A stretch of 64,000 nt of DNA from a virus: positions 1 through 64,000 of IMG/VR virus record IMGVR_UViG_3300032782_000005. The stretch is one strand, 5' to 3'. Positions within the stretch are counted from its first letter, which is position 1, and the number at the start of each line of letters is the position of its first letter. A program made the translations under genes and the position numbers. The notes under the pieces are model-generated. The model was given only the letters and a program-made list of their open reading frames with translations. It had not been told where the DNA came from and did not search any database. Positions 2,044 through 57,912 of the stretch are shown here, piece by piece.

Positions 2044-2065
2044 CTACTGGAAATTTTACCAGTTG
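2044..2065. repeat. 22-bp palindrome copy 1 (2 mismatches)
   Basis: CTACTGGAAATTTTACCAGTTG; its last 3 nt are the TTG start of the next gene. Confidence 0.85.
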
Positions 2066-2950
2066 CCGCCAATCGTGCTAAACGTGATCCACACACGAGC
2101 CTCCCGAGCGGAGGTCGAGGCGGCGCTGCGCAATCTGCCCAGGCTGACCACAGGCTCGCCGGGAGGGGCTGGGGGGTTTGTCCGCGCGCTACAGGTCAGG
2201 ATCGGGCTGGCCCTCTTGCAGCACATCAAGGACGCCTTCATCGTCAAGGCCAGAGGTGGGACGGATGTGTGCGGGGACAAGTGGGCGCCTCTTTCCAAGC
2301 ACACGATTGCGTACTCGCGTTTACATCCCGACGCGAAGAAGGGAAACGTCGGGATGCGCCGGCACAAATTGCCCGGTGGAGGGACGATCGGTCACAACCC
2401 GGCGCGGCTAAAGGGACTGCTTCATCGCGTCGATTACCTTGGGCGCAAGAACCCCGGCCTGTCCGGTTATCACCCCTCGTGGGAACTGTCGCAAAAGAAC
2501 CGCGAGCGCTGGTGGGCGCTCTACCGGAAATTCAAGGCGAAGTATGGAGGGGATAAGCGAAGGGCCGCCGCCACGGCATGGGTCGTCCTCAAGACCGAGG
2601 GCAAAATCGACACGATCATGAGCAAGTTCGGCAACATGCAGGTAGATATCCTGCGTTCGACCGACCTCCTGTTTAACAGCCTCTCTCCCGGCGCCAAGGC
2701 CGACTCTGCCCCAATGTTCCCTCCCCACGTCGAGAAGCAGGTGTTCCGCAACGAGCCGGGCGACGTGATAGTCGGAACGAACCGGAAGTGGTCGTGGACG
2801 CATCATCACGGCGTCCCCGGCAAAATACCTCAGCGCCGTCTTTGGCCCGATCCCAGCCGTTGGACTGGAGAATGGTGGGCGTCCGTGATAGAACAGGCCC
2901 AGAAAGGCATTGCGGAAATCACGGCATACATCGTGGGGAGGATCAAGTGA
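2063..2950 (+). CDS. Phage virion morphogenesis / tail completion protein (Mu gpG-like)
   Basis: G.KWAPLS..T, IL.ST..L.NSL, VIVGTN.KW...HH.G...IPQR motifs. Confidence 0.7.
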   Translation: MPPIVLNVIHTRASRAEVEAALRNLPRLTTGSPGGAGGFVRALQVRIGLALLQHIKDAFIVKARGGTDVCGDKWAPLSKHTIAYSRLHPDAKKGNVGMRRHKLPGGGTIGHNPARLKGLLHRVDYLGRKNPGLSGYHPSWELSQKNRERWWALYRKFKAKYGGDKRRAAATAWVVLKTEGKIDTIMSKFGNMQVDILRSTDLLFNSLSPGAKADSAPMFPPHVEKQVFRNEPGDVIVGTNRKWSWTHHHGVPGKIPQRRLWPDPSRWTGEWWASVIEQAQKGIAEITAYIVGRIK

Positions 2951-3357
2951 GCGCAGCCAACGGCGAGCGGATTCTGGACGTGGGGAGACAGGGCCGGATC
3001 AAGGTCCACTTCGGCGACGACACGGACCCCACCTTCTACATCGACGCCATCGAGGTCTACAACTCGTTCGCGGAGATGGACATGCAGTTCCGCGACGAGA
3101 AGGGAGAGTTTGACAAGACGAAGACGGCCGACTGGAACAAGGCGTGCTGGGGGTTCGTTCAACAGGTGGTTCTGGACCATCTGGCCGACCAGAAGGCCGC
3201 CGAGAAGATCAACGCCGGCATGTCCCTCACCGACGCCCGCCGGTTCCTCAAGCTGTTGCAGGAGGAGGCTAACAGGCTGATCCCTTTTTTCAGGCTCGAC
3301 TCGGCCGAAAGGCGGTCCTCGCCCGAGAGTTCGCCGACAGTCGCCTACTCCGAGTAG
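2947..3357 (+). CDS. Probable tail assembly chaperone (G-like)
   Basis: GTG start overlaps upstream stop; slippery CCCTTTTTTC near the 3' end. Confidence 0.6.
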   Translation: MSAANGERILDVGRQGRIKVHFGDDTDPTFYIDAIEVYNSFAEMDMQFRDEKGEFDKTKTADWNKACWGFVQQVVLDHLADQKAAEKINAGMSLTDARRFLKLLQEEANRLIPFFRLDSAERRSSPESSPTVAYSE

Positions 3358-3566
3358 ACGCCTTCACGGAGCAGGTGCTGTTCGCGGCGCTCCATCAGGC
3401 GCGAGCGTGGGAAAGACTTCACGACCCCGCGACGATGGGGGCCTACGGGATGAGGAAGGACGCCGTTCTGGAACTTGCGAAGCAGGCTGGCCACACCGAG
3501 GCCGAGGCCCAGAAGATCGCTTCCGACTGGGCGTGGAAGCGGAGCGAGTTGGAGATGCCGCACTGA
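3282..3566 (+). other. -1 programmed frameshift site and extended (GT-like) reading frame
   Basis: In-frame C CCT TTT TTC; -1 frame open from 3288 to TGA at 3566, in frame with ORF 3375..3566. Confidence 0.65.
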
Positions 3567-3862
3567 TGCAGGACGCGAGGATCGGGACGTTCGACGGCCT
3601 CGATAACCGACGCTGGCTCATGGAACAACTGGACGCTCTTGGCCACGGACTTGACGAACGCCGGGCCGGCATGAGGCGAGCTGAGTTCCTGCGGTCGCTC
3701 ATGCCTGTCGCTCATCCTGCATGGCAAGGCCGGCCTGTGAAGATCACGCCCTGCGCGACGGTGGAGGCGTACCACCTTCTGATTGCGATGGTCTCCGGCC
3801 TGGGCGTCATGATGGAGACGGCGGCCAGAAGGCTGGAGGAAGCGGTGAGGGCGCAGCGATGA
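3566..3862 (+). CDS. Hypothetical protein
   Basis: TGATG coupling to the upstream frame. Confidence 0.6.
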   Translation: MQDARIGTFDGLDNRRWLMEQLDALGHGLDERRAGMRRAEFLRSLMPVAHPAWQGRPVKITPCATVEAYHLLIAMVSGLGVMMETAARRLEEAVRAQR

Positions 3863-11209: not shown

Positions 11210-12723
11210 ACGAGACTCTGGAACCCACCATCGCCGACCCCCGCTTCTACGTCCCGCGCGAGGACGTGCTGGAGAAGTTGACGCACGCGCTCACGGACGG
11301 TTACAAGCCCACAATCCCCCTCTGGGCGCTGGGTCACGAAAACGAGCCCATGCCCCAATTGTTCCTGTTCCGGGACGTGGAAAGGATGATGATCCACGGT
11401 CATGTCCGGAACTGCTTGGAAATCTACGAGTCGGGGATCGCAGGCGCAGAATTCTGGGGCGGCCCGAATCCTGACATGCCAGACGACCCGGTGGGCCTGC
11501 CGATCTCGGACAACCCGGAAGTCTCGCGCTTCGTCATGTCGCAGGTAAACCGCTTCTGGGACCGTGGCGTCCCCAAGCTTCAGAAGGCTTACCCCTACGG
11601 CTGGATCGGCTGCGAGGCGATGTACGCCCTCGATCAGCAGAATCAACCAGAGTGGGACGATCTGATCGACTTCTCCCCGTGGGACACGTTCATGCTCCTG
11701 ATTGGGGAAAAGCCGGTCGGCGTGCGCGTCAAGCAGGTTCAGTCCCCCGGCGACAAGAAGGATCACGGGGAAGTCAACCTGTGGCTGGCGACGAAGGACG
11801 TTCCGGCAAAAGGAATCTGGTACGCGCATAATCCTCGTTACAACCAGTTCTACGGCCAGAGCCAACTGATCGGGGCGTGGCGCGACTGGAGGCGTCTGGC
11901 GACAAAGGGCGCGGCTGAGACCGTTCTGGACGGAGGGTTCTTCCGACTGGGTTACTGCGCCCCCTTGATCCGTTACCCCAACGAGGACCTTCAGGTCGCT
12001 CAGGCGGTGCCGGGGACCGCCCCGGACTCGCAGGGGCGTCCCCGCCGACCGGCGCGTGATATGGCCCGCATGATAAGCGAGCAGATGCAGGCCGGGGCGG
12101 GGATGGGTATGCCCTCCGATTGTTACGCGCCCGGAACCGGCGGGGAGGGAAAATACAAGTGGGATGCTCAGGAATGGCGCGGCGAATTCGACGGGAGCCA
12201 CATCATCGCCTACTGCGAGCACCTGCACAAGCAGATCGCCAAGGGCATCGGCACGCCATACGAACTCATCGAGGAGACTCAGAGCGGCGGTTCGGGTGGA
12301 GGTTTTTCCGGCAAGATCGTCCCGGTCGAGGCGTTCCTGACCAAGCAGCAAAGGATCGCCGACGCCATGCTCATGCTGTTCATCAAGCAAATCCTTGGCC
12401 CGCTGGTTCAGTGGCGATGGCCGGGCTCGACGTTCAAGGTCGAAGTGAAGAGCCTTCTCCAAACGAAGCGCAAGCAGCAGGCCGGCGGCGACATCTCGAA
12501 CAAGCCAGGCGTGGACCCGAACATGCCGGCGCCGATGCCAGGGACGCATCAGGGCGACTCACACCATCCCTTGCAGGGCCAGAACCCGCCTCCAGGCCAG
12601 ATGGATCAAGGTTTCGCGCCATCCTCGCCGACGCGGGAACTTCCCTTCAGCCTCAACGCGGCGCGTGAGGATCGCGTTGCCAAACTGGCCGCGCTGATCC
12701 GAAGCATAGGGAGGGCAGCGTGA
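11206..12723 (+). CDS. Portal protein (Mu gp29/DUF935-like)
   Basis: About 505 aa; D.E.M..H.HV..CL, A..YGW..CE..Y, N.FYGQS.L..A...W motifs; adjacent to MuF; GTG start with GGAGG. Confidence 0.7.
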   Translation: MNETLEPTIADPRFYVPREDVLEKLTHALTDGYKPTIPLWALGHENEPMPQLFLFRDVERMMIHGHVRNCLEIYESGIAGAEFWGGPNPDMPDDPVGLPISDNPEVSRFVMSQVNRFWDRGVPKLQKAYPYGWIGCEAMYALDQQNQPEWDDLIDFSPWDTFMLLIGEKPVGVRVKQVQSPGDKKDHGEVNLWLATKDVPAKGIWYAHNPRYNQFYGQSQLIGAWRDWRRLATKGAAETVLDGGFFRLGYCAPLIRYPNEDLQVAQAVPGTAPDSQGRPRRPARDMARMISEQMQAGAGMGMPSDCYAPGTGGEGKYKWDAQEWRGEFDGSHIIAYCEHLHKQIAKGIGTPYELIEETQSGGSGGGFSGKIVPVEAFLTKQQRIADAMLMLFIKQILGPLVQWRWPGSTFKVEVKSLLQTKRKQQAGGDISNKPGVDPNMPAPMPGTHQGDSHHPLQGQNPPPGQMDQGFAPSSPTRELPFSLNAAREDRVAKLAALIRSIGRAA

Positions 12724-15230
12724 ACGACTGGCGCACGCAAGGACTGGAATTCGCCGCGCTCCTCTCTCGCGCTGTGCCTCACGCCGAGTCGCTGGAAGAG
12801 GCCGTCGCCGCCGTGGACATGGCGATGGCCAAAAACGGACAAAAGTTGGAGGAAGAAATTCCTACTGGTAATTTTACCAGTAGGCCGCCGTCTGACGTAA
12901 GCCTCGACGCATTCTTCTCTTACGACATTTTCTCCCGTCGCGCCCAGGGCGTTTTGAACCGCGCCATGGCCGCGATGAACGACCTTTCCGCCTCGGCCAG
13001 ACGGGAATTGAAGGCCGCCATCGGCAAGGAAACGCCTGCGGAGATCGGGCAGGCAGTCATTTCGTTCATTCGGCACTATCGCGGTCAACTTGCTGAACTA
13101 TTGGGCGCGACCAACCTGTCTGCCCTTCTGGCAGGGGCGCGGGAAGTGGCCGATAAATTGCCCCCTGTGCCGCTTCCGGGGCTGGGCAAGCCTCCGCCCC
13201 CATCTTTGCCTCCAGACGCGGCAGCGGGCCTCCTGGCGAAACTGGAGGCCATGCCGGAGATGGAGCGCGCGAAGGAGGTCTACAACCTGCCGGCGGATCA
13301 ACAGGAATGGGCCAAGCAGGCGCTGGCCGTCGGTACAGGTCCGCCCATGCCGCCGTTCACTCCGCCCTCGCCTCCGGCGGATTCTCCGGGCGCAATTCAC
13401 TTCCCAACCATCGAGGAGGCCGTCAAGGACTTGTCCGCTCGGAACGTCGTCTCGCGCGACCAGTACGACCGACTGGACGCAGCCGCGAGGCAGAAGGCGT
13501 TCACCGTTGCAGGAGTTGAATCTCAGGAGACGCTGACGAAGATCAGGGACGCCCTGGCCGAGGTCGTCGCCGAGGGCGCGGACGTGGAGGCGTTCCGGCG
13601 GAAGGTCATGGAGAGGGTCGAGCCGAACACTTTCATGAGTCCGGCTCACATGGACGTGGTTGCCAGAAGCAACATCCAGGCGGCGTTCTCGGACGGGCAG
13701 ATGGCAGTCCTGAATACGCCGTTCGTCCGAAGCGGCTTCCCGTACACGATGTACCATGCGATCCACGACGACCGCGTGCGGCACGACCATTTGGAACTGG
13801 AAAAACTCGGCATCCAAGGAACGAATATCTACCGGATTGACGATCCCGTTTTCCAGACGTTCCGCCCGCCTTGGGATTACAACGATAGATGTGGCTTCAC
13901 GCCGATGAGCGTGAAGTTCGCGGCGGAGAAGGGAATTGATGAGGCGAAGCGTTGGCTCGAAACGAACGTCGAGCCCTCCCCTCCCGCCTTCGTCTCCTGG
14001 CCATCTTTCCGCCCCCCGCCCGAGTTCCAGCGCGCCCTGGCCGGCGCGCCCCTGTCGATCCGGCTGTCGTTGCAGCCGATGGAGATCGACCTAGACGATC
14101 TCCGGGATATTGAACTGGCCGTCGGGGACTGGTCCCCACATCACGGAGACAAGGGAGGCGTCGGCTGGAAGAACAGCGCCACGGGAGAAATCCGTTACCA
14201 GAAGAACCGCCCCGGTACGCGAGGAGAGGGCGAGCAGCCAGGCGGAGCGAGGGTCTTTCGCCCGCACGATTACATCAACGCCATCCATCAGCACGTCCAG
14301 TCCGGGGACAAGACGCGGGCTCACAAGTCATGGCAGTCGGTGCCGAGGGAGCAACGTGCCAAGGTCGCGGCCGGGTTATCGTCGGAGGCAAAGAGCGCGA
14401 TCAGGGAAGCGGCTGGAGGAGCGAAGCCGGCTCCAAAGCCACAGCCGGCGCCACAACCGAAAGCTGCGCCACCGCCGGCCCCAAAACCAACTCCGCCGCC
14501 TTCACCACCATCCGCGCCGCCTCCGCAACAGGCGCCACAACCAGGATCGCCTGAGCGGATCAACGAGGCCGTGGCGGCTTCTGGCCTATCTCCGAAGGCA
14601 TCGGAATCGTTGCGCGGCGTGGCAGCGGCCTTGGCGGCGTCGAAGCACCTGACGCCAGAGCAGAGGAATCATTACTATTCAGCAGCGAAATCCGTGCTGT
14701 CCAGAATGACGCCGGCCGCCATAAACCGCTTCAGGGAAGGGGTGAAGCAGGTTGAATTCCATCCAAATTTAGATACTCTTACGGCGTCTTTTACGAAGGT
14801 ATCTGGAAAATCTGTTGAGGGGACTGTTTTAGGTTTTTACGCATGGAAAACACAAATGCTGTCATTGGATGGCGGCAAAGATGTCCAGATGCGAGCAGAA
14901 GACGTGGTGCCAATGACTGGAGAAACGCATCAGACTTATGCTCATGAATTCGGACATGTCATCGACGGACCGCAAGAGGAATACAGCAGCTCAGTTGATT
15001 GGAGGGCGGCATGGTTGCTGGAACTGGTCGCCCCTTCTGCGCCTGAACGCAACATTCTCACCGGGTACGCCACGACGCATCCGGCGGAAGGATTCGCCGA
15101 ATTCAGCCGTTTGCTTCATGGCATTGGCGAGAGGCCGATGAACGCAGCCGAATTGAACGTTGTGGAGTCCGCATTCCCGAGTTGCAGCGCCTTCTGGAAA
15201 GCGAAGGGATTATGGCCGAGCCCCCAGTAA
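12720..15230 (+). CDS. MuF/SPP1 gp7 head morphogenesis protein fused to a C-terminal HExxH metallopeptidase
   Basis: AFTVAG, RSNIQAAFSDG, YHAIHDDRVRHDH, PPWDYNDRC; Pro-rich linker; HEFGH...YATTHPAEGFAE. Confidence 0.85.
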   Translation: MNDWRTQGLEFAALLSRAVPHAESLEEAVAAVDMAMAKNGQKLEEEIPTGNFTSRPPSDVSLDAFFSYDIFSRRAQGVLNRAMAAMNDLSASARRELKAAIGKETPAEIGQAVISFIRHYRGQLAELLGATNLSALLAGAREVADKLPPVPLPGLGKPPPPSLPPDAAAGLLAKLEAMPEMERAKEVYNLPADQQEWAKQALAVGTGPPMPPFTPPSPPADSPGAIHFPTIEEAVKDLSARNVVSRDQYDRLDAAARQKAFTVAGVESQETLTKIRDALAEVVAEGADVEAFRRKVMERVEPNTFMSPAHMDVVARSNIQAAFSDGQMAVLNTPFVRSGFPYTMYHAIHDDRVRHDHLELEKLGIQGTNIYRIDDPVFQTFRPPWDYNDRCGFTPMSVKFAAEKGIDEAKRWLETNVEPSPPAFVSWPSFRPPPEFQRALAGAPLSIRLSLQPMEIDLDDLRDIELAVGDWSPHHGDKGGVGWKNSATGEIRYQKNRPGTRGEGEQPGGARVFRPHDYINAIHQHVQSGDKTRAHKSWQSVPREQRAKVAAGLSSEAKSAIREAAGGAKPAPKPQPAPQPKAAPPPAPKPTPPPSPPSAPPPQQAPQPGSPERINEAVAASGLSPKASESLRGVAAALAASKHLTPEQRNHYYSAAKSVLSRMTPAAINRFREGVKQVEFHPNLDTLTASFTKVSGKSVEGTVLGFYAWKTQMLSLDGGKDVQMRAEDVVPMTGETHQTYAHEFGHVIDGPQEEYSSSVDWRAAWLLELVAPSAPERNILTGYATTHPAEGFAEFSRLLHGIGERPMNAAELNVVESAFPSCSAFWKAKGLWPSPQ
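12862..12883. repeat. 22-bp palindrome copy 2 (exact), inside MuF CDS
   Basis: CTACTGGTAATTTTACCAGTAG. Confidence 0.95.
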
Positions 15231-21787: not shown

Positions 21788-21836
21788 CAGGCCCACTCTA
21801 CCGCGCCCGCCCCGAGAATCAAATAGAATCTTCTTC

Positions 21837-23090
21837 ATGAAGCCCTGCGGCCATCCCCCGGACCAGCCCGTCGAATCCTGCCGTGTGTGTTTCTTGTACT
21901 CCACCCGCCTCGACTACCGCGCCCTCTGGGACGCTACTGGTAATTTTACCAGTAGAAAATTGTCGTATCTCAAATGCGCCTTTTTAAGCCGCCGCGCCCG
22001 CAACGAAGACGGCACGGTGAAGACGCGAGCCTGCGCCCCCTGCGGCGGCAAACAACTGGAGGTATTCCGGTGCGTCTGTCCGTCGCTTAGAATCGGCGAA
22101 TCGGATCACGAGACGACGCTGGCCGAATGCGAGACGTGCCCACACAGGACGAGGGGAACGATGCCCGACGCGCGGAAACTGATCCTCAGGAACCACCTTT
22201 CCCCCGGCGACGTTCTCGTGATGACCGCCGCGATCCACTCGCTGCACAAGGCGCACCCCGGAAGGTTCCGGATCGCCGTCGATACAGCCTGCCCGGCGAT
22301 CTTCGAGAACAGCCCGGAGGTCGAGCCGCTGGATAAGGCGCGCGAGGAGAAATGGGAGGAAATGGATACGCATTATCCTTTGGTGAACGAGTGCAACCAG
22401 AGGGGCATCCATTTCATGCAAGCGTACTGCTCATATTTCGAGGACAATCTGCAAGTCCGCGTTCCACTGGCGACGAACAGGCCGATGGTGTGGCTCAGCG
22501 CCGAGGAGAAGGGCTGGATGAATCAGGTCGAGGAGGCGTTCAAATACAAGGGGAGGTTCTGGCTCGTCAACGCCGGGCGAAAGAATGACTACACCTGCAA
22601 GCACTGGGGAACGGAATCCTTCCAGCGCGTCGTCGATTCACTCCGGGGCAAGGTCGTGTTCGTGCAAGTCGGCGCGGCAGAGCATCATCATCCACCGCTC
22701 AGGAACGTCCTGAACCTCGTCGGCAAGACCGACCTGAGGCAATTGATCCGCCTCTGCTGGCACGCGGACGGCGTTCTGTGCGGCGTGACGATGCTCCACC
22801 ATTTGGCGGCGGCCCTGGAAAAACGCTGCGTGACGATCATGGGCGGGCGCGAGCCGGTCCAATGGAACTCGTACCCTCGTTGCCAACTCCTGCACACCAT
22901 CGGCTCGCTCTCCTGCTGTCGAGACGGAGGGTGCTGGAAGTCGCGCGTCATCGCCCTGCCCGACAACGCCGAACAGAACAACTCGCTTTGCGAGCAACCT
23001 CAACCGGGCGACGAACCGATTCCCCGTTGTATGAGCCTTATCCGCCCCGACGACGTGGCGTCGAAGGTCGCGCTCTTGACGACGGCATGA
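21837..23090 (+). CDS. GT9 (ADP-heptose heptosyltransferase-like) glycosyltransferase with Cys-rich N-terminal domain
   Basis: SPGDVLVMTAAIHSL, FVQVG, NLVGKTDLRQLIRL, HLAAALEK..VTI.GG, C-terminal C..CW...C...CM..I.P..V. Confidence 0.85.
   Translation: MKPCGHPPDQPVESCRVCFLYSTRLDYRALWDATGNFTSRKLSYLKCAFLSRRARNEDGTVKTRACAPCGGKQLEVFRCVCPSLRIGESDHETTLAECETCPHRTRGTMPDARKLILRNHLSPGDVLVMTAAIHSLHKAHPGRFRIAVDTACPAIFENSPEVEPLDKAREEKWEEMDTHYPLVNECNQRGIHFMQAYCSYFEDNLQVRVPLATNRPMVWLSAEEKGWMNQVEEAFKYKGRFWLVNAGRKNDYTCKHWGTESFQRVVDSLRGKVVFVQVGAAEHHHPPLRNVLNLVGKTDLRQLIRLCWHADGVLCGVTMLHHLAAALEKRCVTIMGGREPVQWNSYPRCQLLHTIGSLSCCRDGGCWKSRVIALPDNAEQNNSLCEQPQPGDEPIPRCMSLIRPDDVASKVALLTTA
21934..21955. repeat. 22-bp palindrome copy 3 (exact), inside GT9 CDS
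   Basis: CTACTGGTAATTTTACCAGTAG. Confidence 0.95.
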
Positions 23091-23246
23091 GGCCGGGTTA
23101 CTATCCCTCCACATGGGAACCGCGCTGAGGGAATTAAAGACCTGCTTGCGTTGCGGATGGCGCTGGTTTTCGCGCAAGCCGTTCCCGCCGCGCTGTCCGA
23201 ACCCGAAGTGCCGAAGCCCATACTGGAACAAGCCAAAGGCGAAGTT

Positions 23247-23720
23247 ATGATTGCCTCGGAATGCCGCTGCTGCGAAATGAACGCCGCCGACCGCCCTTCA
23301 TGGGGAGACGGTCCGTGGGCCAACGAGCCGGATCGCGCCGAATGGGAACACAATGGTCTGCCTTGCATCACTCACCGTGGCGGAAACGGCGCATGGTGCG
23401 GTTACGTCGGCGTGCCTCCAACTCACCCGTTGCACGGCAAGCGCTACGGCGAGGTTGACTTGGAGGTGCATGGCGGCCTGACCTATTCGGACGCTTGCCA
23501 TGGCCACATCTGCCACACTCCCAAGCCGGGCGAGGGCGACGATGTGTGGTGGTTCGGGTTTGACTGCGCTCATGCCTTTGATCTCTGTCCGACCATCGAC
23601 GCGAAAATGCGAGATTACATCTTCCACGGCATACCAGAAGGCCACTACTGGACGCTGGAAGAGGTCCGCGCCGAAGTGAACCAGCTTGCCGATCAATTGG
23701 CGGCCTTGATGGTGAAGTGA
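23247..23720 (+). CDS. Conserved phage hypothetical protein
   Basis: WCGYVGVP..HP..G, VHGGLTYS, WWFGFDCAH motifs; start uncertain. Confidence 0.75.
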   Translation: MIASECRCCEMNAADRPSWGDGPWANEPDRAEWEHNGLPCITHRGGNGAWCGYVGVPPTHPLHGKRYGEVDLEVHGGLTYSDACHGHICHTPKPGEGDDVWWFGFDCAHAFDLCPTIDAKMRDYIFHGIPEGHYWTLEEVRAEVNQLADQLAALMVK

Positions 23721-23920
23721 TGGGCTACTTCCCCGGCTACGACAACGAACCATGCTGGTTCTGTGGTCGCTCAGACTGCAACGGCAACCATTCAGGACCG
23801 TCGGCTGACGCGGCGCGGGAGAGGATCACGCACTTCGAGCGCGGCTTCGGCCATCCGTCTTGCCCGTGTCAGTCGTGCCGCGAAATGCGTGAACGGGAAG
23901 CGAACCGGAGGAAGGAATGA
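23717..23920 (+). CDS. Small Cys-rich protein
   Basis: Coupled to neighbours on both sides. Confidence 0.5.
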   Translation: MMGYFPGYDNEPCWFCGRSDCNGNHSGPSADAARERITHFERGFGHPSCPCQSCREMREREANRRKE

Positions 23921-24467: not shown

Positions 24468-24480
24468 TCGGAGTCATGGA

Positions 24481-33030: not shown

Positions 33031-33033
33031 GGC

Positions 33034-36641: not shown

Positions 36642-36816
36642 GGCCCATCATGTTCGGGGCCAAATGCTCGCGCTGCCCTTATTGGGTGAATATTTCAGCA
36701 AACGCGACTCATGAAGTGCGAGATTATTTGGTCGATAGCGGCTGGGAAATTCTGACGCAGCCAGTGCAATTGCTCTGTCCATGGTGCGTTGACAAAAAGA
36801 GGGCCAAGGAAAAGCC

Positions 36817-38175
36817 ATGACTCCCATCGACCGACTGATCCAGTCCACGCAGGCGACCGAGAAGCGCATCGTCGTCCTCGGCGACTCGATGCGCGACGTT
36901 CATGTCCATGGCGACCTTCTCCCTTCCCAGGACGGCGTGCAGAAATTCGTGGAACGCCGCCGTCTTGAGACTCCCGGCGGCGCAGCGGGGGCGGCGCGGC
37001 AACTTTGCCGGTGGAGCGCGGAGACAATTCTGCTATCGGTCGGTCACTGTGGCGATCCTCCATACCACGAATCATGGAACGCTGTTGACTGGTCGCATTG
37101 CATGATGAGTCGTCGTATGCCCGAAAAGCACCGCTTCCTCGACGACTCCGGGCGCATCCTCTGGAGACACGACAAGGACCACGGCTACGGCGCTGACGCG
37201 AACCTGATGGAGTCGTGGCGGAAGACGATCCTGGAGCGGCTGTACGAGTTGGCCCCGGACGCCGTGCTGATTTCCGATTACGACAAGGGCTTCCTGACGG
37301 AGGCGATGATCCGCGAAGTCATCGGGTGGTGCAATGAGAAGGGCGTCCCGATTGTAGCGGACGCGAAGCGCGAGCCGAAAGTATACGACGGCGCGATCTT
37401 GAAATTCAACCACGACTATTGGCTCAACCACACGACAACAGGTAAGAGCGAAGTGATAACCTTGGGGGCCGAGCCTCCTGGGGTCAATGGCCGGGTGCTT
37501 CCTAAGATGGCCATTGGCGGCATTGTTTGCAAAAATCACGTCGGAGCTGGCGATTGCTTTTCCGCCACGCTCGCACTCGCCCTGGCTCACGGCTTCTCAT
37601 TGGAGGACGCCGCCGCCATCGCCCATTCCGCCGGACGCATTTACGTCCAGCATCTTCACGGTCGTCCGCCATGGCCTTTTGAGATTCGGCGCGACCTAAA
37701 TCCGGTCGGGGGAAAGGTCTTATCAGCGTTCGACCTCGCCGCCTTGTGTAGGGCGGCCCCCGGCCGGATTTGCTGGGCCAACGGGTGCTTTGACCTCCTC
37801 GGCCCACACCACGTCCAGTTCCTCCAGAATGCCCGCAGACAGGGCGATCTCCTGGTGGTCGGGCTGAACGACGACCAGAGCGTGAGGCGGCTTAAAGGGC
37901 CAAAACGCCCCATCATGGCCCTTCCCGAACGGACTGCCATGCTGGCAGCGCTCGATTGCGTGGATTGGGTCGTGCCGTTCTCCGCCGACGCCCCCGTGGA
38001 AGAACTGTCGGCGCTGCGTCCCCATGTGCGCGTCTGCGCCGACATTCCGGATCGCAACGGCGCCGGGGACGAATACGCAGGCGAGGTCAAACTGCTCCCG
38101 ATGGTTCCGCAGGCTTCAACCACGGCGATGGTGGAGAGGATAATCCGGTTGCAGCGAACCCCGTCTCCGGCGTAG
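36817..38175 (+). CDS. hldE: Bifunctional heptose-7-P kinase / heptose-1-P adenylyltransferase (HldE/RfaE-like)
   Basis: IVVLGD.M.D, PGGAA, VLISDYDKG, GAGD; NGCFDLL..HH, VVGLN.D.SVRRLKG..RPI. Confidence 0.85.
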   Translation: MTPIDRLIQSTQATEKRIVVLGDSMRDVHVHGDLLPSQDGVQKFVERRRLETPGGAAGAARQLCRWSAETILLSVGHCGDPPYHESWNAVDWSHCMMSRRMPEKHRFLDDSGRILWRHDKDHGYGADANLMESWRKTILERLYELAPDAVLISDYDKGFLTEAMIREVIGWCNEKGVPIVADAKREPKVYDGAILKFNHDYWLNHTTTGKSEVITLGAEPPGVNGRVLPKMAIGGIVCKNHVGAGDCFSATLALALAHGFSLEDAAAIAHSAGRIYVQHLHGRPPWPFEIRRDLNPVGGKVLSAFDLAALCRAAPGRICWANGCFDLLGPHHVQFLQNARRQGDLLVVGLNDDQSVRRLKGPKRPIMALPERTAMLAALDCVDWVVPFSADAPVEELSALRPHVRVCADIPDRNGAGDEYAGEVKLLPMVPQASTTAMVERIIRLQRTPSPA

Positions 38176-38179
38176 ACTG

Positions 38180-38596
38180 ATGCTGCATTGCAGATCGGAG
38201 GACGCTTTGCTCGCTCAAATACCCGCCCCTCCAACCGATTTTTTCAGCAACTCGATTCTGTTTGTGATCGCTGGCATCTTCATCGCGGATCGTGGGTTGT
38301 CGGTGTTCATTCAACTTCGGGCGCTGATCGGCTCCGGCGACAGCAGGTTGGCGACCAAGGGAGACGTGAAGGAGGCTCGAACTGAAGTAGTGGGCGACCT
38401 GGAGTTGCACAAGCGCGAGGATTCCAAGCATTTTGGCGAGGTCAAGGAGGAGATCAAGGGCGTCAAGGCTGACATCAAGGAAGTGCGAGAGGCAGTGAAC
38501 GAAACGCGGATCAGCACGGCGGAAATCGCGGCGGCATTGCGCGAGCATTTCAACATGACGCCATCACGGGTGGGGAGAAAGGACGGGGCGAAATGA
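38180..38596 (+). CDS. Membrane-anchored coiled-coil protein (holin-like)
   Basis: One hydrophobic segment, then heptad repeats. Confidence 0.5.
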   Translation: MLHCRSEDALLAQIPAPPTDFFSNSILFVIAGIFIADRGLSVFIQLRALIGSGDSRLATKGDVKEARTEVVGDLELHKREDSKHFGEVKEEIKGVKADIKEVREAVNETRISTAEIAAALREHFNMTPSRVGRKDGAK

Positions 38597-43871: not shown

Positions 43872-43893
43872 CTACTGGTAAAATTACCAGTAG
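43872..43893. repeat. 22-bp palindrome copy 5 (exact, opposite core orientation)
   Basis: CTACTGGTAAAATTACCAGTAG. Confidence 0.95.
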
Positions 43894-43932
43894 AAAATTA
43901 TCCCCTCTCATTTATAGCACATCAAGCTCCTC

Positions 43933-46400: not shown

Positions 46401-46468
46401 TAGAATGGTAGAGCCGGATGGCTGGAACCACCCGGCTCACGAACACAACCCGCTGTCAGGAGCGAGTC
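46401..46468 (+). promoter_or_regulatory. -10 box plus two-hairpin leader of endonuclease gene 3
   Basis: TAGAAT; GAGCCGG/CCGGCTC stem; ACGAACACA; ACCCGCT/AGCGAGT stem; 1 nt; ATG. Confidence 0.65.
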
Positions 46469-47032
46469 ATGTCCGAAAGCCATTCTACCGAAACTTGGCG
46501 TCCGGTCGTCGGTTACGAAGGCTTCTACGAGGTCTCAGATCGCGGCCGCATTCGCGGCGTGGACAGGTTGGTTGGGAGCAAAATACCCGGAACACTCAAG
46601 CCGTGGAAAGGAAAGATTTTGGCTCCTGGCGTCACAGAGACGGGACGCCTGCGCATAAGGCTGATGAAGTATGGTAAATCGAAAATGGAATTCGTTCATC
46701 GTCTCGTTCTTCTCGCTTTCGTTGGCCCATGCCCAGAAGGAATGGAAGCGTGCCATGATCCAGACCCAGACCCAAGCAATTGCCGACTCAATAATCTCCG
46801 CTGGGACACGCATATTGCGAACAAAGTGGATCAAATGCGCCATGGAAGGGGAACGAGTGGTGAGCGTCATGGCATGGCAAAACTGACGACGGTACAGGTT
46901 GAAGTAATCCGTCGGGAATACAGAAGGACGCATTACCATCGGTCTAATGCAAAGGAATTAGCAGCCCGCTATGGAGTTACGGTTGATATGGTGGGCCGCA
47001 TTCTAAGAGGCGATAACTGGCGAAAAACATGA
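46469..47032 (+). CDS. NUMOD4-HNH homing endonuclease
   Basis: ETWRPVVGYEGFYEVSDRGRIR; VHRLVLLAFVGPCP...CH...N..L.NLRWDT...N. Confidence 0.92.
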   Translation: MSESHSTETWRPVVGYEGFYEVSDRGRIRGVDRLVGSKIPGTLKPWKGKILAPGVTETGRLRIRLMKYGKSKMEFVHRLVLLAFVGPCPEGMEACHDPDPDPSNCRLNNLRWDTHIANKVDQMRHGRGTSGERHGMAKLTTVQVEVIRREYRRTHYHRSNAKELAARYGVTVDMVGRILRGDNWRKT

Positions 47033-47658
47033 AGATAATTGAGTGCGAGCAGGGCAGTTCTGAGTGGTTTGAGGCTCGAAAAGGCGTTCCGACAGCTTCA
47101 AGATTCGGCATGGTCCTGACTGCGAAGACGATGCGCTTATCGGCCCAGGCCGACGAACTCATAAACCAACTTATAGGAGAAAAGTTATCTCTGATTCCGC
47201 CCGAAGGCGTTGAGCATTTTACAAATCGCGCTATACGCTGGGGCGAGCAGACCGAGGACGAGGCGCGCGCTTGGTATTCGCTAGAGACGAACCATGATGT
47301 GCAGCAGGTCGGCTTTTGCCTCACCGACGACGGACGTTTCGGCTGTTCGCCTGACGGCCTGATTGGCGACGACGGCGTTTTGGAGTTGAAGTGCCCCCAG
47401 GCGGCGACCCAGGTGTCCTATCTGCTGGCAGGCGGCCTTCCCAGCGAATATCGCGCCCAGTGCGCCGGCGCGTTGATCGTCACAGGCCGTCCATGGCTCC
47501 ATTTTGTCTCGTACTCGCCCGGCCTGCCGCCATTGCTCGTCAAGGTCCAACGGGACGAATACGTGGAAAAACTCGCCGCCGCCCTGGAGGAATTCCACAT
47601 CCGCTACCAGGACGCCCTCGAACGCATCACGTCGATGGGTGGAGGGAGGGGCGAATGA
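47029..47658 (+). CDS. YqaJ / lambda exonuclease family protein
   Basis: EQGS.EW...RKG..TAS, G...E..AR, GCSPDGL, LELKCP, Y..Q. Confidence 0.92.
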   Translation: MKIIECEQGSSEWFEARKGVPTASRFGMVLTAKTMRLSAQADELINQLIGEKLSLIPPEGVEHFTNRAIRWGEQTEDEARAWYSLETNHDVQQVGFCLTDDGRFGCSPDGLIGDDGVLELKCPQAATQVSYLLAGGLPSEYRAQCAGALIVTGRPWLHFVSYSPGLPPLLVKVQRDEYVEKLAAALEEFHIRYQDALERITSMGGGRGE

Positions 47659-48041
47659 ACGTCGGCGATCTGACCCACCGGCAGCGCGAATTCCTGTGCG
47701 CCATCTGGGATTTTCTCGTCTACCAGGGCGAGTATCCCACCGTGCGGCAACTATGCGATCTCCTAGACATCAATTCGCCCAACGGCGTCATGAGTCACAT
47801 CATGTATTTGAAGAAAAAGGGCTTTGTGGAATGGCACGGCAAACATCGTGGCGTCGGCGATGGGCGGCCTTCACGGGCGCGCTGCGTCCGCCTCAGCGGC
47901 GTTCGGATGAGACCCGTTTTTGACGACACATTGGATGGCCAGGAGATGCGCAAGGTGATCTGCGAGCCTGTCTGCGCAGCAACCGCTGGCCCTCATGAGT
48001 CGTCAGCGTCGGCCATGACAGGAGAACCCGAATTAGCTTAA
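47655..48041 (+). CDS. LexA-type winged-HTH regulator lacking the peptidase domain
   Basis: LTHRQREFL......G.YPTVRQL...L.I.SPNGV..H...L.KKG. Confidence 0.85.
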   Translation: MNVGDLTHRQREFLCAIWDFLVYQGEYPTVRQLCDLLDINSPNGVMSHIMYLKKKGFVEWHGKHRGVGDGRPSRARCVRLSGVRMRPVFDDTLDGQEMRKVICEPVCAATAGPHESSASAMTGEPELA

Positions 48042-48100: not shown

Positions 48101-49159
48101 ATGGCAGTTGCAGCACGATCGGTGCCGATCTCCAAAATTCGTCTCAGCGACGGTACGCAGACGCGCGTGAAGACCGACCCGGATGTCGTGGCGGACTACG
48201 CGGAACACGCGCAGGAGCTTCCGCAGGCCGAGGGCGAGGACCCCATCGTTCTCTTCACCGAGGACGAGGAGGCGTACTGGCCCGGCGCGGGTCATCACCG
48301 CATCCCGGCTCTGGCAAGCGCCGGCTACGAACACATCAAGGCCGACGTGCGCAAAGGGACGCAAAGGGACGCAAAGCTCTACAGCCTGGGCTCCAACGCC
48401 GCCCACGGCCTTCAACGGACGCGCGCCGACAAGCGCCACATGATCGAAGCCTTGTTGGAAGACGACGAGTGGTCGCAATGGTCCAGCCGCGCCATCGCCG
48501 ATCACCTGCACGTCTCCCACCCTCTCGTCGAGGAAGTCCGGGCTGGCAAAAATGGACAAATGGGAGAGGATAAAAAATCAACTGGTAAAATTTCCAGCAC
48601 CCGCACCTCCAAGTCGGGGAAGCAGGTGCCGGCCTCGCGCGGCCCAAAATGCCCGAAGTGCGCCAAGGCAAAGGAGCGCGACCCCAACTGCGCCGCGTGC
48701 AAGAAGCTTCAGGACGAGGCGGAGAAGAAGCGGACGGCCGCTCAGTTCGAGAAGGACCGCCTCAAGCAGGAGCAGGCTGAGAAGAAGGCCCAACGCGAGC
48801 GAGCTGCGCGCGAGGTCAAGGAGCGTCGGGAGGCTGAGAAGGAAAAGAAGGCCGAGGCCCGGCGTCTCGCAGCCGAGCAGAAGGCGCGCGAACGCGAGGA
48901 GGAGAAAACCCGCAAGGAGGTCGCCAAGGCGCAAAGGGAACTGGCCGCCGAAACGCGCCGCAAGGAACGAGAGGCGATGGCGACGGGCAAACCGATTTAC
49001 GACGACCCCAAGGTCCACGCCGCGATCATCGGCCTGTCCCGCCTGTTCAACGACCGGGCTACGGCGTTGAAACAGCAGAAATCCCTCCTGTTCGCCGCCG
49101 TGCGGCAGGGGATGGACATTGTTCTAAAGGCGTGGGAAGCGTGGAGGAAGGCCAAATGA
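48101..49159 (+). CDS. ParB/Srx-like protein: ParB N-domain, HTH, CxxC pair, long coiled coil
   Basis: V.I..I....TQ.R, V..YA, PIVLF, GHHR (GxxR), N..HGL..T.ADKR, WSSRAIA..L.VSH..V...R. Confidence 0.85.
   Translation: MAVAARSVPISKIRLSDGTQTRVKTDPDVVADYAEHAQELPQAEGEDPIVLFTEDEEAYWPGAGHHRIPALASAGYEHIKADVRKGTQRDAKLYSLGSNAAHGLQRTRADKRHMIEALLEDDEWSQWSSRAIADHLHVSHPLVEEVRAGKNGQMGEDKKSTGKISSTRTSKSGKQVPASRGPKCPKCAKAKERDPNCAACKKLQDEAEKKRTAAQFEKDRLKQEQAEKKAQRERAAREVKERREAEKEKKAEARRLAAEQKAREREEEKTRKEVAKAQRELAAETRRKEREAMATGKPIYDDPKVHAAIIGLSRLFNDRATALKQQKSLLFAAVRQGMDIVLKAWEAWRKAK
48579..48600. repeat. 22-bp palindrome copy 6 (4 mismatches), inside the ParB-like CDS
   Basis: CAACTGGTAAAATTTCCAGCAC; its reverse complement shares 19 contiguous nt with copy 1. 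Confidence 0.75.
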
Positions 49160-49404
49160 GTTGCCCGACGTGCGATCACACGATGCACAACCTCGGCGTC
49201 ACGTATTACTGGTGTCCGCGCTGCGGGACGATACAGCAGTCGCTGGACTTCAAGCCGTTCAACGTCAATGTTCCGAAACTGGTGGGTCGGTGCCGACAAT
49301 ATGAGTGCATTCCTGTTCCGTTCAACGTGCAACCACTGCTCGCATCCGAGTGGCAGCGCCTGGGAATCGCGGAGTCGATCAACAAGCCGGAGGACAGGTC
49401 GTGA
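49156..49404 (+). CDS. Zn-ribbon protein
   Basis: CPTC...WCPRCGT. Confidence 0.6.
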   Translation: MSCPTCDHTMHNLGVTYYWCPRCGTIQQSLDFKPFNVNVPKLVGRCRQYECIPVPFNVQPLLASEWQRLGIAESINKPEDRS

Positions 49405-50954
49405 GCGACGCCCGCGAGCGATGGACCCATCAGAAATTTGCCCTCGCCGAGGCCATGCGCCGCATGGAAGCAGGAGCGAAGAGAATCTGCGTTACAACCC
49501 CCACCGGCGGCGGCAAGAGCCTCATAATCTGCGACCTGATCGAGCAGGCCGTCGCAAGAGAATGCAAGGCCGTGCTTTACACCAACCGGAGACTCCTCAT
49601 CAACCAGTTGGAGCGGGTTCTGGAAGGCCACGGCATCCGCTTCGGCGTCCGGGCTGCCGGGCATGAGGATCGGCGCGAGTTGGACGTGCAGGTGTCCTCG
49701 CTTCCGACCGAGAACGCCCGCGTGTTCAAGAGCGAGAAGTGGGACCTGCATGGGAACGGCAAGCCGATCCTCGTGATCGTTGACGAGGCGCATTTGAACA
49801 AGGGCGAGGTCGCTCAAAAAGTCCTGAACAGGCACGTCGAGGACGGGAGCGCCTGCATCGGCTTCACGGCGACGCCAATTGGGCTGAAAGGCGTCTACGA
49901 CGAACTGGTGATCGCCGGCACGCCGTCAGAACTCCGCCAGTGCGGCGCCCTGGTCCCCGCTTATCACTACGGCATCGACGAGCCGGACATGAGCAACTTT
50001 CGGCAGAACGTGAAGACGGGGGAATTCTCCGAAGGGGACGTGCGCAAGGCCATCATGACCAAGTGCATCTTCGGCCGCGTCCTCGAACACTACCGAGCCT
50101 TGAACCCGGACGGCAGGCCGACGATCCTGTTCGCGCCCGGCGTGAAAGAGAGCGTCTGGTTCGCGCAACAACTGTGCGAGGCCGGCGTCAGGGCCGCGCA
50201 CATCGACGGGGAAGGAGTTTGGGCCGACGGGGAATACGAGCGCGGCGGCGACCGGGAGCGAATCCTGCGCGCTTGCATGGGCGGCGAGGTCGTTCTGTGC
50301 AACCGCTTCGTGGCCCGCGAAGGGCTGGACCTGAAGCCGGTGAGCCATTGCATCCTTGCGACCGTGATGGGCTCGCTCCAGTCGTATTTGCAAAGCGTGG
50401 GGCGCGTCTTACGAGCCTGCCAGGGCAAGGAGCGGGCAAGTATCCAAGATCATGGCGGCCACTTCTGGCGGCATGGCAGCGTCAACGCCGACCGCGAATG
50501 GAAACTGGAGTACACCGAGAACATCCTGTCCGGCATGAGGGCGGAGCGGTTCACGGAGAAGAAAGAGCCCGAGCCGATCCGCTGCCCCAAGTGCGGCCTG
50601 GTCCGCGCCGCCGGCCCCCTGTGCAAGGGTTGCGGCTTCGAGTCCACCAAACGGACGCGGATGGTCATGCAGCAGGACGGGACGCTCGTGGAGCACGAAG
50701 GCGACATCTTCAAGCCGAGGCGCGTCAAGCAATTCCAGAACACGGAGCAAATCTGGATCAGGTGCTACTACCGGGCGAAGAACTCGAAGAACCGGATGAC
50801 CTTCAGGCAGGCGGCTTCACTCATGAATTACGAGGAGCATTACTGGCCTCCCAACAACCTGCGCTTCATGCCCAAGGAAGCGCTGGATTGGTACAACGCC
50901 GTCGCCGATGTGCCTGTCGAGCGCCTGATCGGCGGCAAACAGGAGGCAGGATGA
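49401..50954 (+). CDS. SF2 DEAH helicase with C-terminal Zn finger
   Basis: PTGGGKS, DEAH, TATP, EGLD, QSVGRVLR, CPKC...C.GCG. Confidence 0.93.
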   Translation: MSDARERWTHQKFALAEAMRRMEAGAKRICVTTPTGGGKSLIICDLIEQAVARECKAVLYTNRRLLINQLERVLEGHGIRFGVRAAGHEDRRELDVQVSSLPTENARVFKSEKWDLHGNGKPILVIVDEAHLNKGEVAQKVLNRHVEDGSACIGFTATPIGLKGVYDELVIAGTPSELRQCGALVPAYHYGIDEPDMSNFRQNVKTGEFSEGDVRKAIMTKCIFGRVLEHYRALNPDGRPTILFAPGVKESVWFAQQLCEAGVRAAHIDGEGVWADGEYERGGDRERILRACMGGEVVLCNRFVAREGLDLKPVSHCILATVMGSLQSYLQSVGRVLRACQGKERASIQDHGGHFWRHGSVNADREWKLEYTENILSGMRAERFTEKKEPEPIRCPKCGLVRAAGPLCKGCGFESTKRTRMVMQQDGTLVEHEGDIFKPRRVKQFQNTEQIWIRCYYRAKNSKNRMTFRQAASLMNYEEHYWPPNNLRFMPKEALDWYNAVADVPVERLIGGKQEAG

Positions 50955-55957: not shown

Positions 55958-55963
55958 GGCAGC

Positions 55964-57862
55964 ATGGGCTTTCCGGGAACAGGTCCGTTCGCGCACAAGG
56001 GGGCGGCGTCCTCTAACACGAACAACGTCACGACGGCCGGCATCGACACGACCGGGGCCGATCTTTTGATCTGCCTTGTGGCGACATACATCGGAGGCCC
56101 TTCGCCGACGTTGACGGATTCGGTCGGCGGCAACAGCAATAGCTGGACAAAGTACGGCGAACACACTGGCGGCGGCGGCAACGACGCGGGCCGCATCACG
56201 ATATTTTACTGCCAGGCCCCGGCCCACGTCGGCTCGGGGCACACGTTCACGGCGACCTCTACAGGCGGCTACCCGGCGATCAACGTGCAGGCGTGGACGG
56301 GCAGTGCATCAACTCCTGCGGACGGAACCAACGGGGCGACGGGCGCTGGCATCACGTCGCTGGCCACGGGCAACGTGTCGCCGACTCAGGACGGCGATTT
56401 ATTGGTGTCCGGCTGCTGCATCGGCAGCAGTCTGGCTCCCACGTCCATCGACAGCGGCTTTACCTACATCACCGCCGATAAGATCACGAACGCCGGAAAC
56501 AACGAGGGCTTGGGCGGGGCGTGGCTGGTGCAAGGGGCGCATGCAACGGTCAATCCGACATGGAGTTTCAGCACCGCAAATCAGGTCGCTGTGAACGTGG
56601 CGGCGTTCAAGGGATCGCCAGCGGCAAGCAGTTCTTCCGTTTTGAGCAGCAGTTCGTCGATTAGGGCGTCCCCGTCATCCTCGCCATCTTCGTCCCTTTC
56701 GGTCGCGCCGCCGTCCTCAAGTCCTTCGCCATCCGCCAGCGTCCTTCCATCAAGTAGCCCTTCCAGCGCATTGCCGTCCGCATCACCAAGCCCATCGAGC
56801 AGCATTGCGGTTTCGCCGTCGCCAAGCGCTTCCCCAAGTCCATCCAGCAGCGGGCCATCCTTAACAAGCCCAGCCATTGCGCCGTCGAGCAGTCCAAGCC
56901 CATCGCCTTCTCCGTCGAGCCCTTCTCCTTCTGCGAGCGCTTCGCCCAGCGCAGCGAAGAGTCCGTCAGCATCGCCATCAGTCAGTCCTTCGTCGTCGCC
57001 ATCGACTAGTCCGTCGGTCAGCGCATCCGTATCAACTTCAGCGTCTCTAAATCCGTCTGTGAGCGCCGCGCCGTCCGTTTCTTCCTCGTCGTCGCTGAGC
57101 AGTTCCCTGATCGTCTCGGCGAGTCCCCGGGTCAGTTCATCGTCGCCTAGTCCATCATCGAGCCTCGGTCCATCTGCGTCGGCCAGCGCATCTCCGAGCA
57201 AGAGCGTGGCGCCATCTTCCTCAGCGAGTCTGTCGTCATCCCTGTTCGTGGCCCCATCTGTTTCATCCAGCAGTGGACCGTCTCCGTCCGTCTCGATCAG
57301 CGCCTCTGTCGCATCCTCACGCGCCCCGAGCAGCCTGTCGTCAATTATCTCAATCTCATCGAGTGTTTCGCCAAGTGCGTCGGTCAGCCCATCGGCCAGC
57401 GCCTCGGCTTCACCCTCAGTCTCGTCGGCTAAAAGCCCGTCAGCGAGTCCATTCGCCTCGTCGTCGCCGTCTGTCGTGGCATCGTCCGGCTCTCCATCAC
57501 CGTTTTCCAGCAAGATAAGCCCGTCGAGCAGCCTGAGCAGCATCTTCGCCGTCCCAAGTTCATCGCTGCTGTCGAGCCTGAGTCCGTTCAGCCTTAGCAT
57601 TTCCTCGCTGAGTCCGTCTCCGCGCTCGTCGCCATCTATTTCCCCAAGCAGTCGGTCGCCGGCCTCGCTCCCCTCGATCTCACCTGTCTCATCCTCAGCC
57701 GCCTCGGCGTCGAGCGCGCAGCCCGTGATCCTCATTGGAGCCCTCGTTCTGGATAAGCTATATTTCGATTCTGTCGTGGTGGACCATGGGAAGTTCGAGA
57801 CGCCGGTGCTCGACAAGGCGGCGTTCGTCTCGACCATTGTTGACAGGGCCAAACTACCCTAA
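55964..57862 (+). CDS. Putative virion protein with ~365-aa mucin-like Ser/Pro/Ala stalk
   Basis: N-terminal beta domain (IDTTGADLL...), long low-complexity Ser tract, short C-terminal (V)D-K/H repeats. Confidence 0.7.
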   Translation: MGFPGTGPFAHKGAASSNTNNVTTAGIDTTGADLLICLVATYIGGPSPTLTDSVGGNSNSWTKYGEHTGGGGNDAGRITIFYCQAPAHVGSGHTFTATSTGGYPAINVQAWTGSASTPADGTNGATGAGITSLATGNVSPTQDGDLLVSGCCIGSSLAPTSIDSGFTYITADKITNAGNNEGLGGAWLVQGAHATVNPTWSFSTANQVAVNVAAFKGSPAASSSSVLSSSSSIRASPSSSPSSSLSVAPPSSSPSPSASVLPSSSPSSALPSASPSPSSSIAVSPSPSASPSPSSSGPSLTSPAIAPSSSPSPSPSPSSPSPSASASPSAAKSPSASPSVSPSSSPSTSPSVSASVSTSASLNPSVSAAPSVSSSSSLSSSLIVSASPRVSSSSPSPSSSLGPSASASASPSKSVAPSSSASLSSSLFVAPSVSSSSGPSPSVSISASVASSRAPSSLSSIISISSSVSPSASVSPSASASASPSVSSAKSPSASPFASSSPSVVASSGSPSPFSSKISPSSSLSSIFAVPSSSLLSSLSPFSLSISSLSPSPRSSPSISPSSRSPASLPSISPVSSSAASASSAQPVILIGALVLDKLYFDSVVVDHGKFETPVLDKAAFVSTIVDRAKLP

Positions 57863-57890
57863 AGGGGCACAATAGCTATCTCACAATTTC

Positions 57891-57912
57891 CTACTGGTAA
57901 TTTTACCAGTAG
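57891..57912. repeat. 22-bp palindrome copy 7 (exact)
   Basis: CTACTGGTAATTTTACCAGTAG. Confidence 0.95.

Follow-up and report, generated by a model that had tools for sequence, protein, structure and literature searches.

The genome of the phage in IMG/VR virus record IMGVR_UViG_3300032782_000005 (79,484 bp), of which bases 1-64,000 are the stretch analysed here (the window), contains nine copies of a 22-bp palindrome, CTACTGGTAA-WW-TTACCAGTAG, with 10-bp arms and a centre of either AA or TT. The copies form an evenly spaced lattice of approximately one site per 9 kb. Comparison with homologous loci suggests that the 22-mer is most likely bound by a ParB-like protein encoded at 48101-49159 (hereafter p48101). 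On balance we lean towards the interpretation that the 22-mer is the cognate site of p48101 and that its copies are dispersed, origin-like docking sites rather than a ParA-driven centromere.

The sequence CTACTGGTAATTTTACCAGTAG occurs exactly at positions 12862, 21934 and 57891, and the AA-centred form occurs exactly at 34507 and 43872. Degenerate copies are present at 2044 (two mismatches) and 48579 (four mismatches, the most degenerate of the nine). These seven positions, and the sizes of the gaps between them, had been reported in an earlier note on this DNA (the original prediction) and all were confirmed. A scan of the full record identified two further copies outside the window, at genome positions 64659 (two mismatches, at the 3' end) and 70236 (exact), and no tenth copy with five or fewer mismatches anywhere in the 79,484 bp. 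No matches were found in 100 dinucleotide shuffles, giving a chance expectation of zero against the nine copies observed. The record has a 127-bp terminal repeat that looks like an assembler overlap, which would make the genome a 79,357-bp circle. On this circle the gaps between successive copies are 10.8, 9.1, 12.6, 9.4, 4.7, 9.3, 6.8, 5.6 and 11.2 kb, and their spacing is more even than that of randomly placed points (coefficient of variation 0.28 versus a random mean of 0.86, P = 4e-4). Both the smallest gap (4.7 kb, P = 0.002) and the largest gap (12.6 kb, P = 0.001) are unusual relative to random placement, and the result is unchanged when random sites are taken from gene junctions only. 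The half-site of the palindrome is CTGG, so that the box reads CTGG-N8-CCAG within an overall TACTG-N10-CAGTA. The only palindromes in the genome with a score of at least 10 are the 22-mers and one other palindrome, at 71105, which is described below.

Among sequencing runs, this uncultured phage was found in one wetland metagenome only, which may be its source, with no RNA run listed. A blastn search with 7.9 kb of the phage DNA against 50,697 phage records returned no match. The exact 22-mer was found in a single, unrelated contig (36% GC) among JGI metagenome contigs, and motif scans of IMG/VR returned single chance copies apart from one unrelated fragment. This fragment (IMGVR_UViG_3300009787_000008, 58 kb, 40% GC) is from a phage and contains 11 exact, dispersed copies of CTGGTAAATTTACCAG, which has the same 16-bp core as the 22-mer within a longer palindrome (aacctt...aaggtt), with gaps of 0.1-9 kb. 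The ParB-like profile gave no match in this record, but at 45% completeness the negative carries no weight.

The repeated unit is a directional cassette of ~54 bp that comprises the palindrome and an AT-rich arm. The arm is conserved over ~32 nt on one side of the palindrome only, with the pattern AAAa.gG.a.AAt.G.ga..g.a.AATTTc. It is 66% AT, compared to 37% for the other flank and 38% for the genome, and the arms share 47% of their positions versus 27% for the opposite flanks. Subfamilies of arms are apparent, with 24 of 32 positions shared between copies 34507 and 57891 and 22 of 32 between copies 12862 and 48579. Six cassettes point rightward and three leftward, which does not track gene direction, and the AA or TT centre is independent of the direction of the arm. 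The seven cassettes in the window are as follows.

2012-2065, + strand: copy 1, arm 2012-2043 and palindrome 2044-2065 with two mismatches, between the stop of gene 1875-2018 and the next gene.
12830-12883, + strand: copy 2, exact, in frame in the N-terminal part of the MuF-like gene 12720-15230, where it encodes the peptide AKNGQKLEEEIPTGNFTSR.
21934-21987, - strand: copy 3, exact, in inverted orientation with the palindrome at 21934-21955 and the arm on the right.
34475-34528, + strand: copy 4, exact and intergenic, directly behind the stop codon of the radical-SAM gene (33315-34478) and ahead of the HNH endonuclease gene (34609-35301).
43872-43925, - strand: copy 5, exact, inverted, in a low-coding region of ~700 bp before the recombination/replication module.
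48547-48600, + strand: copy 6, four mismatches, in frame in the ParB-like gene, where it encodes residues ~149-167, the linker after the helix-turn-helix (HTH).
57859-57912, + strand: copy 7, exact and intergenic, 13 nt upstream of the ATG of gene 57926-58240.

We mapped genes with our own codon-usage script rather than a standard gene finder. In this map 87.5% of the genome is coding and 12.5% non-coding, and nearly all genes are on the + strand. Six copies of the palindrome are intergenic (2044, 34507, 43872, 57891, 64659 and 70236) and 21934 is a possible seventh; the binomial probability of at least six of nine copies falling in the 12.5% of non-coding DNA is ~2e-4. Because six or seven of the nine copies are intergenic, placement is not indifferent to gene boundaries, which corrects the original prediction, where placement was said not to track promoters. 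The same prediction had located three copies in coding regions. This holds for the copies in the MuF-like gene (12862) and the ParB-like gene (48579), which are the only two clearly in frame within genes, but not for the copy attributed to the GT9 glycosyltransferase (21934), which lies ~70 codons before the point where that gene probably starts. Copy 3 is instead surrounded by low-coding DNA, between a leftward gene cluster that ends at 21533 and the probable start of GT9 (~22158).

Two other functions were considered for the cassette and rejected. As a promoter, the arm is unconvincing because only one of the nine, that of copy 5, matches the sigma-70 consensus (TTGATG-17-GATAAT, minus strand), and there are few strong promoters genome-wide. 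As RNA, the palindrome folds into a hairpin with a 9-bp stem and a 4-nt loop in every context; a terminator or other RNA element was rejected on the basis that there is no T-run after the hairpin, no consistent structure in the arm, and no Rfam match.

A single genomic relative was found, L131: a 20-kb contig whose TerL is 62% identical to that of the phage and which is syntenic with it through the head genes. L131 contains no copy of the palindrome. Where the phage has site 2044, the corresponding junction of L131 is TAAATG; in the phage, the stop codon and a TTG are separated by 47 nt of arm and palindrome. Where the phage has site 70236, the genes of L131 overlap (ATGA), and a palindrome and arm take the place of this overlap in the phage. 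At both comparable junctions the cassette is, from these alignments, an insertion between abutting genes, and no target-site duplication was evident at either when read by eye. An A-to-T change in the last arm of palindrome 2044 creates a TTG at 2063-2065. Since this triplet corresponds in the alignment to the ATG with which the homologue in L131 begins, copy 1 seems to supply a start codon, and its mutated final three nucleotides are probably the start codon of the next gene.

The candidate binder is encoded by the gene that contains copy 6.

48101-49159, + strand: p48101, with a ParB/Srx-fold N-domain, an HTH (helices 129-136 and 140-150), a cassette-encoded linker, a Cys4 motif, a long coiled coil, and a C-terminal helix.

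The original prediction had called this protein ParB-like, and three lines of evidence agree. An AlphaFold (AF2) model (pLDDT 84.6) matched Noc, ParB-CDP, KorB, and Caulobacter ParB in Foldseek with a probability of 1.0 over ~145-150 columns, which cover the N-domain and HTH. The family profile matched sulfiredoxin (4.6e-5) and ParB chains (2e-3). Homologues of p48101 carry PF02195, and eight of nine aligned members match phrog_1033 ("ParB-like partition protein"). According to the model, p48101 has an N-domain and HTH like those of ParB, Noc, and KorB. The conserved residues of its N-domain are Q20, R22, G64-H-H-R67, and N99, and of these Q20, R22, G64/R67, and N99 are invariant in the family. 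Box II reads G64-H-H-R67-..-A70 and not GERRxRA. The only disordered stretch in the model is residues 153-169 (pLDDT <50), which is the cassette-encoded part. Some members of the family have C-terminal matches to DnaD-like or O-like families.

A back-translated pattern search of IMG/VR retrieved 282 related loci, so that the family has at least 282 members, and 80 of these loci were analysed. A palindrome with a score of at least 9 (19-29 bp) is present a few codons after the HTH in 38 of the 80 loci, at the position of site 48579, compared to only 1 among 456 windows drawn at random from these loci. The sites of the homologues commonly read CTG-N10/11-CAG, with CTG-N11-CAG spacing in many, and have outer arms of TCA or TAT; the inner bases vary while remaining symmetric through the centre. 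The closest homologues of p48101 (P0002 and P0007) encode STGNISS- or PTGNISS-type peptides. The reading frame of the left arm differs between homologues, which indicates that it is the DNA and not the peptide that is conserved.

The base next to CTG is predicted by residue 140, the first residue of the recognition helix. Aspartate or glutamate pairs with C in 11 of 11 cases, glutamine with A in 4 of 4, arginine with G in 2 of 2, and histidine with G in 19 of 22. Residues 140-142 reading (D/H)KT pair with (C/G)GGAA in 9 of 9 cases, whatever the outer arm, and column 141 has the highest mutual information among the 95 variable columns. On a tree built from the N-domain only, the residue-base classes require 22 changes versus a mean of 20.9 for shuffled labels (i.e., they are as scattered as if shuffled), and in five pairs of sisters the residue and the base change jointly. 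The recognition helix of p48101, S-H-P-L, groups with those of homologues whose sites read CTG-GTAAC or CTG-GAAAC. The motif therefore covaries with the recognition helix across relatives, and this comparative evidence supports a tie between the p48101 family and this type of palindrome.

The neighbours of the p48101 gene are as follows.

47655-48041, + strand: LexA-type protein of 128 aa, a rival candidate binder, directly upstream of the p48101 gene, with a winged-helix DNA-binding domain and no peptidase domain.
49401-50954, + strand: superfamily 2 (SF2) helicase (ResIII/DEAD/Helicase_C), a partner that is conserved downstream of the ParB-like genes of this family.

An SF2 helicase gene lies directly downstream of the ParB-like gene in 47 of 48 loci and is followed by a Toprim gene, while a PD-(D/E)XK exonuclease, AAA_24, DUF669, and RusA are encoded upstream. 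The context of the gene family is a replication/recombination module. In the full records of six relatives, each relative's own palindrome occurs 2, 1, 1, 1, 2, and 2 times. Three of the six have an extra copy, which is exact, intergenic, and 12-24 kb away; one of these adjoins TerL and one adjoins the portal gene. Further repeats were observed near the second copies in two relatives: three GTTTSGA heptads directly upstream in G005 (positions 1977-2006 of the segment of that relative's DNA analysed), and an additional palindrome, GTCTATCTCGTTTGGAGATAGAC, ~60 nt upstream in G001 (positions 1965-1990 of the segment analysed).

The original prediction had seen no ParA in the window. This was borne out and extends to the complete 79-kb record, in which neither PF13614 nor PF01656 has a match at E <= 1, with controls matched in 14 of 14 genomes. 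The same prediction had proposed a role in partition or condensation. The position of the family in replication modules, upstream of an SF2 helicase and Toprim, and the presence of only one or two sites in relatives, point instead to origin-type docking.

We infer the following scheme. Members of the family would normally carry the site a single time, within the part of their own gene that codes for the flexible linker behind the HTH. In this phage the ~54-bp cassette would have been copied to eight further places, mostly exactly between genes, making the nine copies a lineage-specific expansion. p48101, presumably a dimer through its predicted coiled coil, would bind the 22-mer, and the AT-rich arm may be an unwinding element. 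The distributed sites would then be places where p48101 nucleates assembly of the helicase and replisome, or where it arrests forks.

Several observations weigh against this scheme. p48101 itself has no Pfam match at E <= 0.1 and no PHROG match, and among the nine copies the one in its own gene is the most degenerate. Less than 100 nt separate the HTH from the palindrome, so joint inheritance or recombination could have produced the covariation without functional coupling. The residue-base pairs correspond to classical amino acid-base preferences, and this chemical sense argues against mere linkage without excluding it. The AT-rich arm was not found in relatives, which mostly have one or two sites, and this leaves the nine-site lattice with no evident purpose. 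The sites are single palindromes rather than iteron arrays, and it is not obvious why a genome of 79 kb would need nine origins. Finally, the intergenic placement of the sites suits transcriptional control equally well.

Such control is the basis of an alternative that retains p48101 as the binder. As a KorB-like or stoperator-type repressor, it would silence or block neighbouring operons, or coat the genome as a sliding clamp switched by nucleoside triphosphates (NTPs). KorB is among the best structural matches to p48101, and uses dispersed OB operators and a cytidine triphosphate (CTP)-dependent clamp (PMC11790492). Six or seven of the nine sites are intergenic, two of them between genes that are translationally coupled in L131, where a roadblock would split an operon. 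The even spacing suits coverage of the whole genome, and the invariant residues Q20, R22, G64/R67, and N99 resemble those of Boxes I-III. However, Box II is GHHR rather than GERR, and no KorA- or TrbA-like partner was identified. A sigma-70 consensus is present in a single arm, the 6:3 orientation of the cassettes is unrelated to gene direction, and relatives have only one or two sites, in replication and packaging modules. We regard this alternative as possible but unlikely. A different binder is less probable still: the palindromes could be operators of the LexA-type protein at 47655-48041, or of a host LexA, and form a phage-wide repressor regulon. The TACTG-N10-CAGTA architecture resembles that of SOS boxes, most sites are intergenic, and a protein with a LexA_DNA_bind match (E = 1.5e-12) is encoded beside the ParB-like gene. 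CTGT is generally given as invariant in SOS boxes, however, and the half-site here is CTGG, with CTG-N11-CAG spacing at many of the relatives' sites. The 128-aa protein lacks an S24 peptidase domain and has no homologue in the 80 related loci (phmmer, E < 1), and the covariation is with the HTH of the ParB-like protein. A LexA regulon is thus an improbable explanation.

The cassette might also have spread by copy and paste with no dedicated protein, either as a selfish element similar to miniature inverted-repeat transposable elements or repetitive extragenic palindromes, or as an RNA hairpin involved in mRNA stability or processing, with the evenness arising from the purging of close copies. 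Its insertion at two junctions relative to L131, its in-frame presence (as a 54-nt unit) in two genes, the arm subfamilies (34507/57891, 24/32; 12862/48579, 22/32), and the hairpin that forms in every context would all fit. On the other hand, neither a target-site duplication at the two junctions, read by eye, nor a transposase among the annotated genes of the phage was found. The near-invariance of the palindrome, set against the drift of the arm, points to selection on the 22 bp, and the palindromes of the family are perfect through the centre, which the loop of a hairpin would not need. The absence of an Rfam match and of a consistent arm structure speaks against an RNA function. Purging of close copies cannot explain the spacing because the largest gap, too, is smaller than random placement predicts (P = 0.001), and the covariation between residue and base would be left unexplained. 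We consider a selfish or hairpin element quite improbable. The least probable explanation, to which we give very little credence, is a true partition centromere, with dispersed parS sites acting with a host or undetected ParA in an extrachromosomal prophage. The linear plasmid-prophage N15 has dispersed centromere repeats, and p48101 would provide a candidate binder with a ParB fold. Against this, there is no ParA, AAA_31, or CbiA match in the complete record and no integrase, protelomerase, or plasmid replicon among the annotated genes, and the genes of the family reside within lytic replication modules.

ParB-fold proteins are now regarded as general nucleotide-switched DNA clamps, and little has been described of their roles in phages. 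Origin-like docking by p48101, if binding is confirmed, would connect the ParB fold with the initiation of phage replication or with whole-genome organisation. The case offers a directly testable pair of a protein and its likely site, with a simple predicted recognition code (residue 140 versus the base next to CTG), and one genome in which the in-gene site of the family has spread into a regular lattice. A bolder and much more speculative extension is that a single origin-type site has been multiplied into a genome-wide lattice on which a nucleotide-switched clamp loads every ~9 kb, covering the chromosome to organise, replicate, or shield it without ParA. More broadly, this extension would envisage a large, undescribed phage ParB-fold family with an in-gene recognition palindrome and a readable residue-to-base code. 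Our literature search found no description of a phage ParB-fold family with an in-gene site. The passages on this topic in a survey of the ParB-CTPase fold describe neither an in-gene site nor a helicase-linked phage family (PMC12704722).

Two further ParB-like genes are present outside the window.

Genome 70750-71535: ParB1, the second ParB-like gene (PHROG 4715/12047).
Genome 71544-72356: the third ParB-like gene, directly after ParB1.

ParB1 contains its own 26-bp palindrome, CACTTCCGGCAAATTTACCGGAAGTG, at genome positions 71105-71130, between its N-domain and HTH. This palindrome is of the same general type as the 22-mer but is a distinct site, with six mismatches over 22 positions. The 2.2-kb block that holds both genes is absent from L131. 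Genes for HNH endonucleases (PHROG 374/1271; NUMOD4 and HNH_3) were identified at 34609-35301 and 46418-47032 in the window and at genome positions 76568-77446 on the minus strand. The last of these lies between conserved head genes and is absent from L131, which fits a homing insertion. The gene at 34609-35301 immediately follows cassette copy 34507. This copy and copy 21934 flank a large block of sugar-pathway genes (21800-38200) that includes GT9, heptose kinase/adenylyltransferase-like domains (twice), an aminotransferase, and radical-SAM. The cassette copy at 64659 lies in ~1.7 kb of low-coding DNA (genome 63550-65250) ahead of the packaging genes, together with two GAATTGACGG boxes with sigma-70-like promoters and a 29-nt direct repeat; this is possibly a regulatory or packaging-signal region. 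At 55964-57862 there is a long, Ser-rich open reading frame (ORF) on the + strand with a GC2 of 0.71, which is overlapped by a 423-aa ORF on the minus strand (56581-57852) with a good codon-usage score. The coding strand is uncertain here, and both GC and AT skew are negative.

The closest parallels to the arrangement at p48101 are phage replication initiators. The ori of phage lambda is located inside gene O, which encodes its initiator. In phage SPP1, oriL is located inside gene 38, which encodes the replisome organiser gp38 (G38P), and oriR is located in the late region, with an AT-rich unwinding element at each (PMC6316719). As in these systems, the predicted site of a DNA-binding protein of the replication module lies inside its own coding sequence (48579, in the disordered linker) and a helicase gene follows. 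As in SPP1, an AT-rich stretch adjoins each site in this phage, like an unwinding element, and relatives of the phage have a second site 12-24 kb away among packaging or head genes, comparable to oriR. However, p48101 has a ParB/Srx fold and HTH rather than the fold of O or gp38, its site is a single long palindrome rather than tandem direct repeats or iterons, and the helicase is of the SF2 rather than the DnaB type. There are also nine evenly spaced copies rather than one or two.

Among ParB-fold systems, the IncP-1 plasmid RK2 has 12 OB operators of 13 bp on ~60 kb, and KorB takes part in partition together with the ParA-type IncC. p48101 and its sites similarly combine a ParB-fold HTH protein with one palindrome dispersed around a replicon of ~60-80 kb. 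KorB is a CTP-dependent clamp that works with KorA or TrbA at promoters (PMC11790492). The phage system differs in its 22-bp site, the absence of ParA, the lack of an identified KorA-like partner, its divergent Box II, and the location of the gene in a replication module. In Bacillus subtilis a parS site lies inside spo0J, and Noc binds many dispersed palindromes. The phage system resembles ParABS and Noc in its N-domain and HTH fold; as with ParABS the site can lie inside the parB gene, and as with Noc and its NBS sites there are many dispersed palindromes. Unlike the clustered 16-bp parS of canonical ParABS, its sites are 22 bp with CTG-N10-CAG arms and are spread over the whole genome; there is no ParA, and GHHR replaces GERRxRA. 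ParB folds are reported, in the relevant passages of the survey, to bind CTP, ATP, or GTP (PMC12704722). The phage system also differs from a LexA/SOS regulon, whose box is CTGT-N8-ACAG rather than CTGG-N8-CCAG, and the 128-aa protein of the phage consists of a DNA-binding domain only. An initiator with an origin in its own gene and KorB with its OB operators are kinds of system that are already known, and the lattice described here would be a variant of both, with a predicted protein-site code that can be tested.

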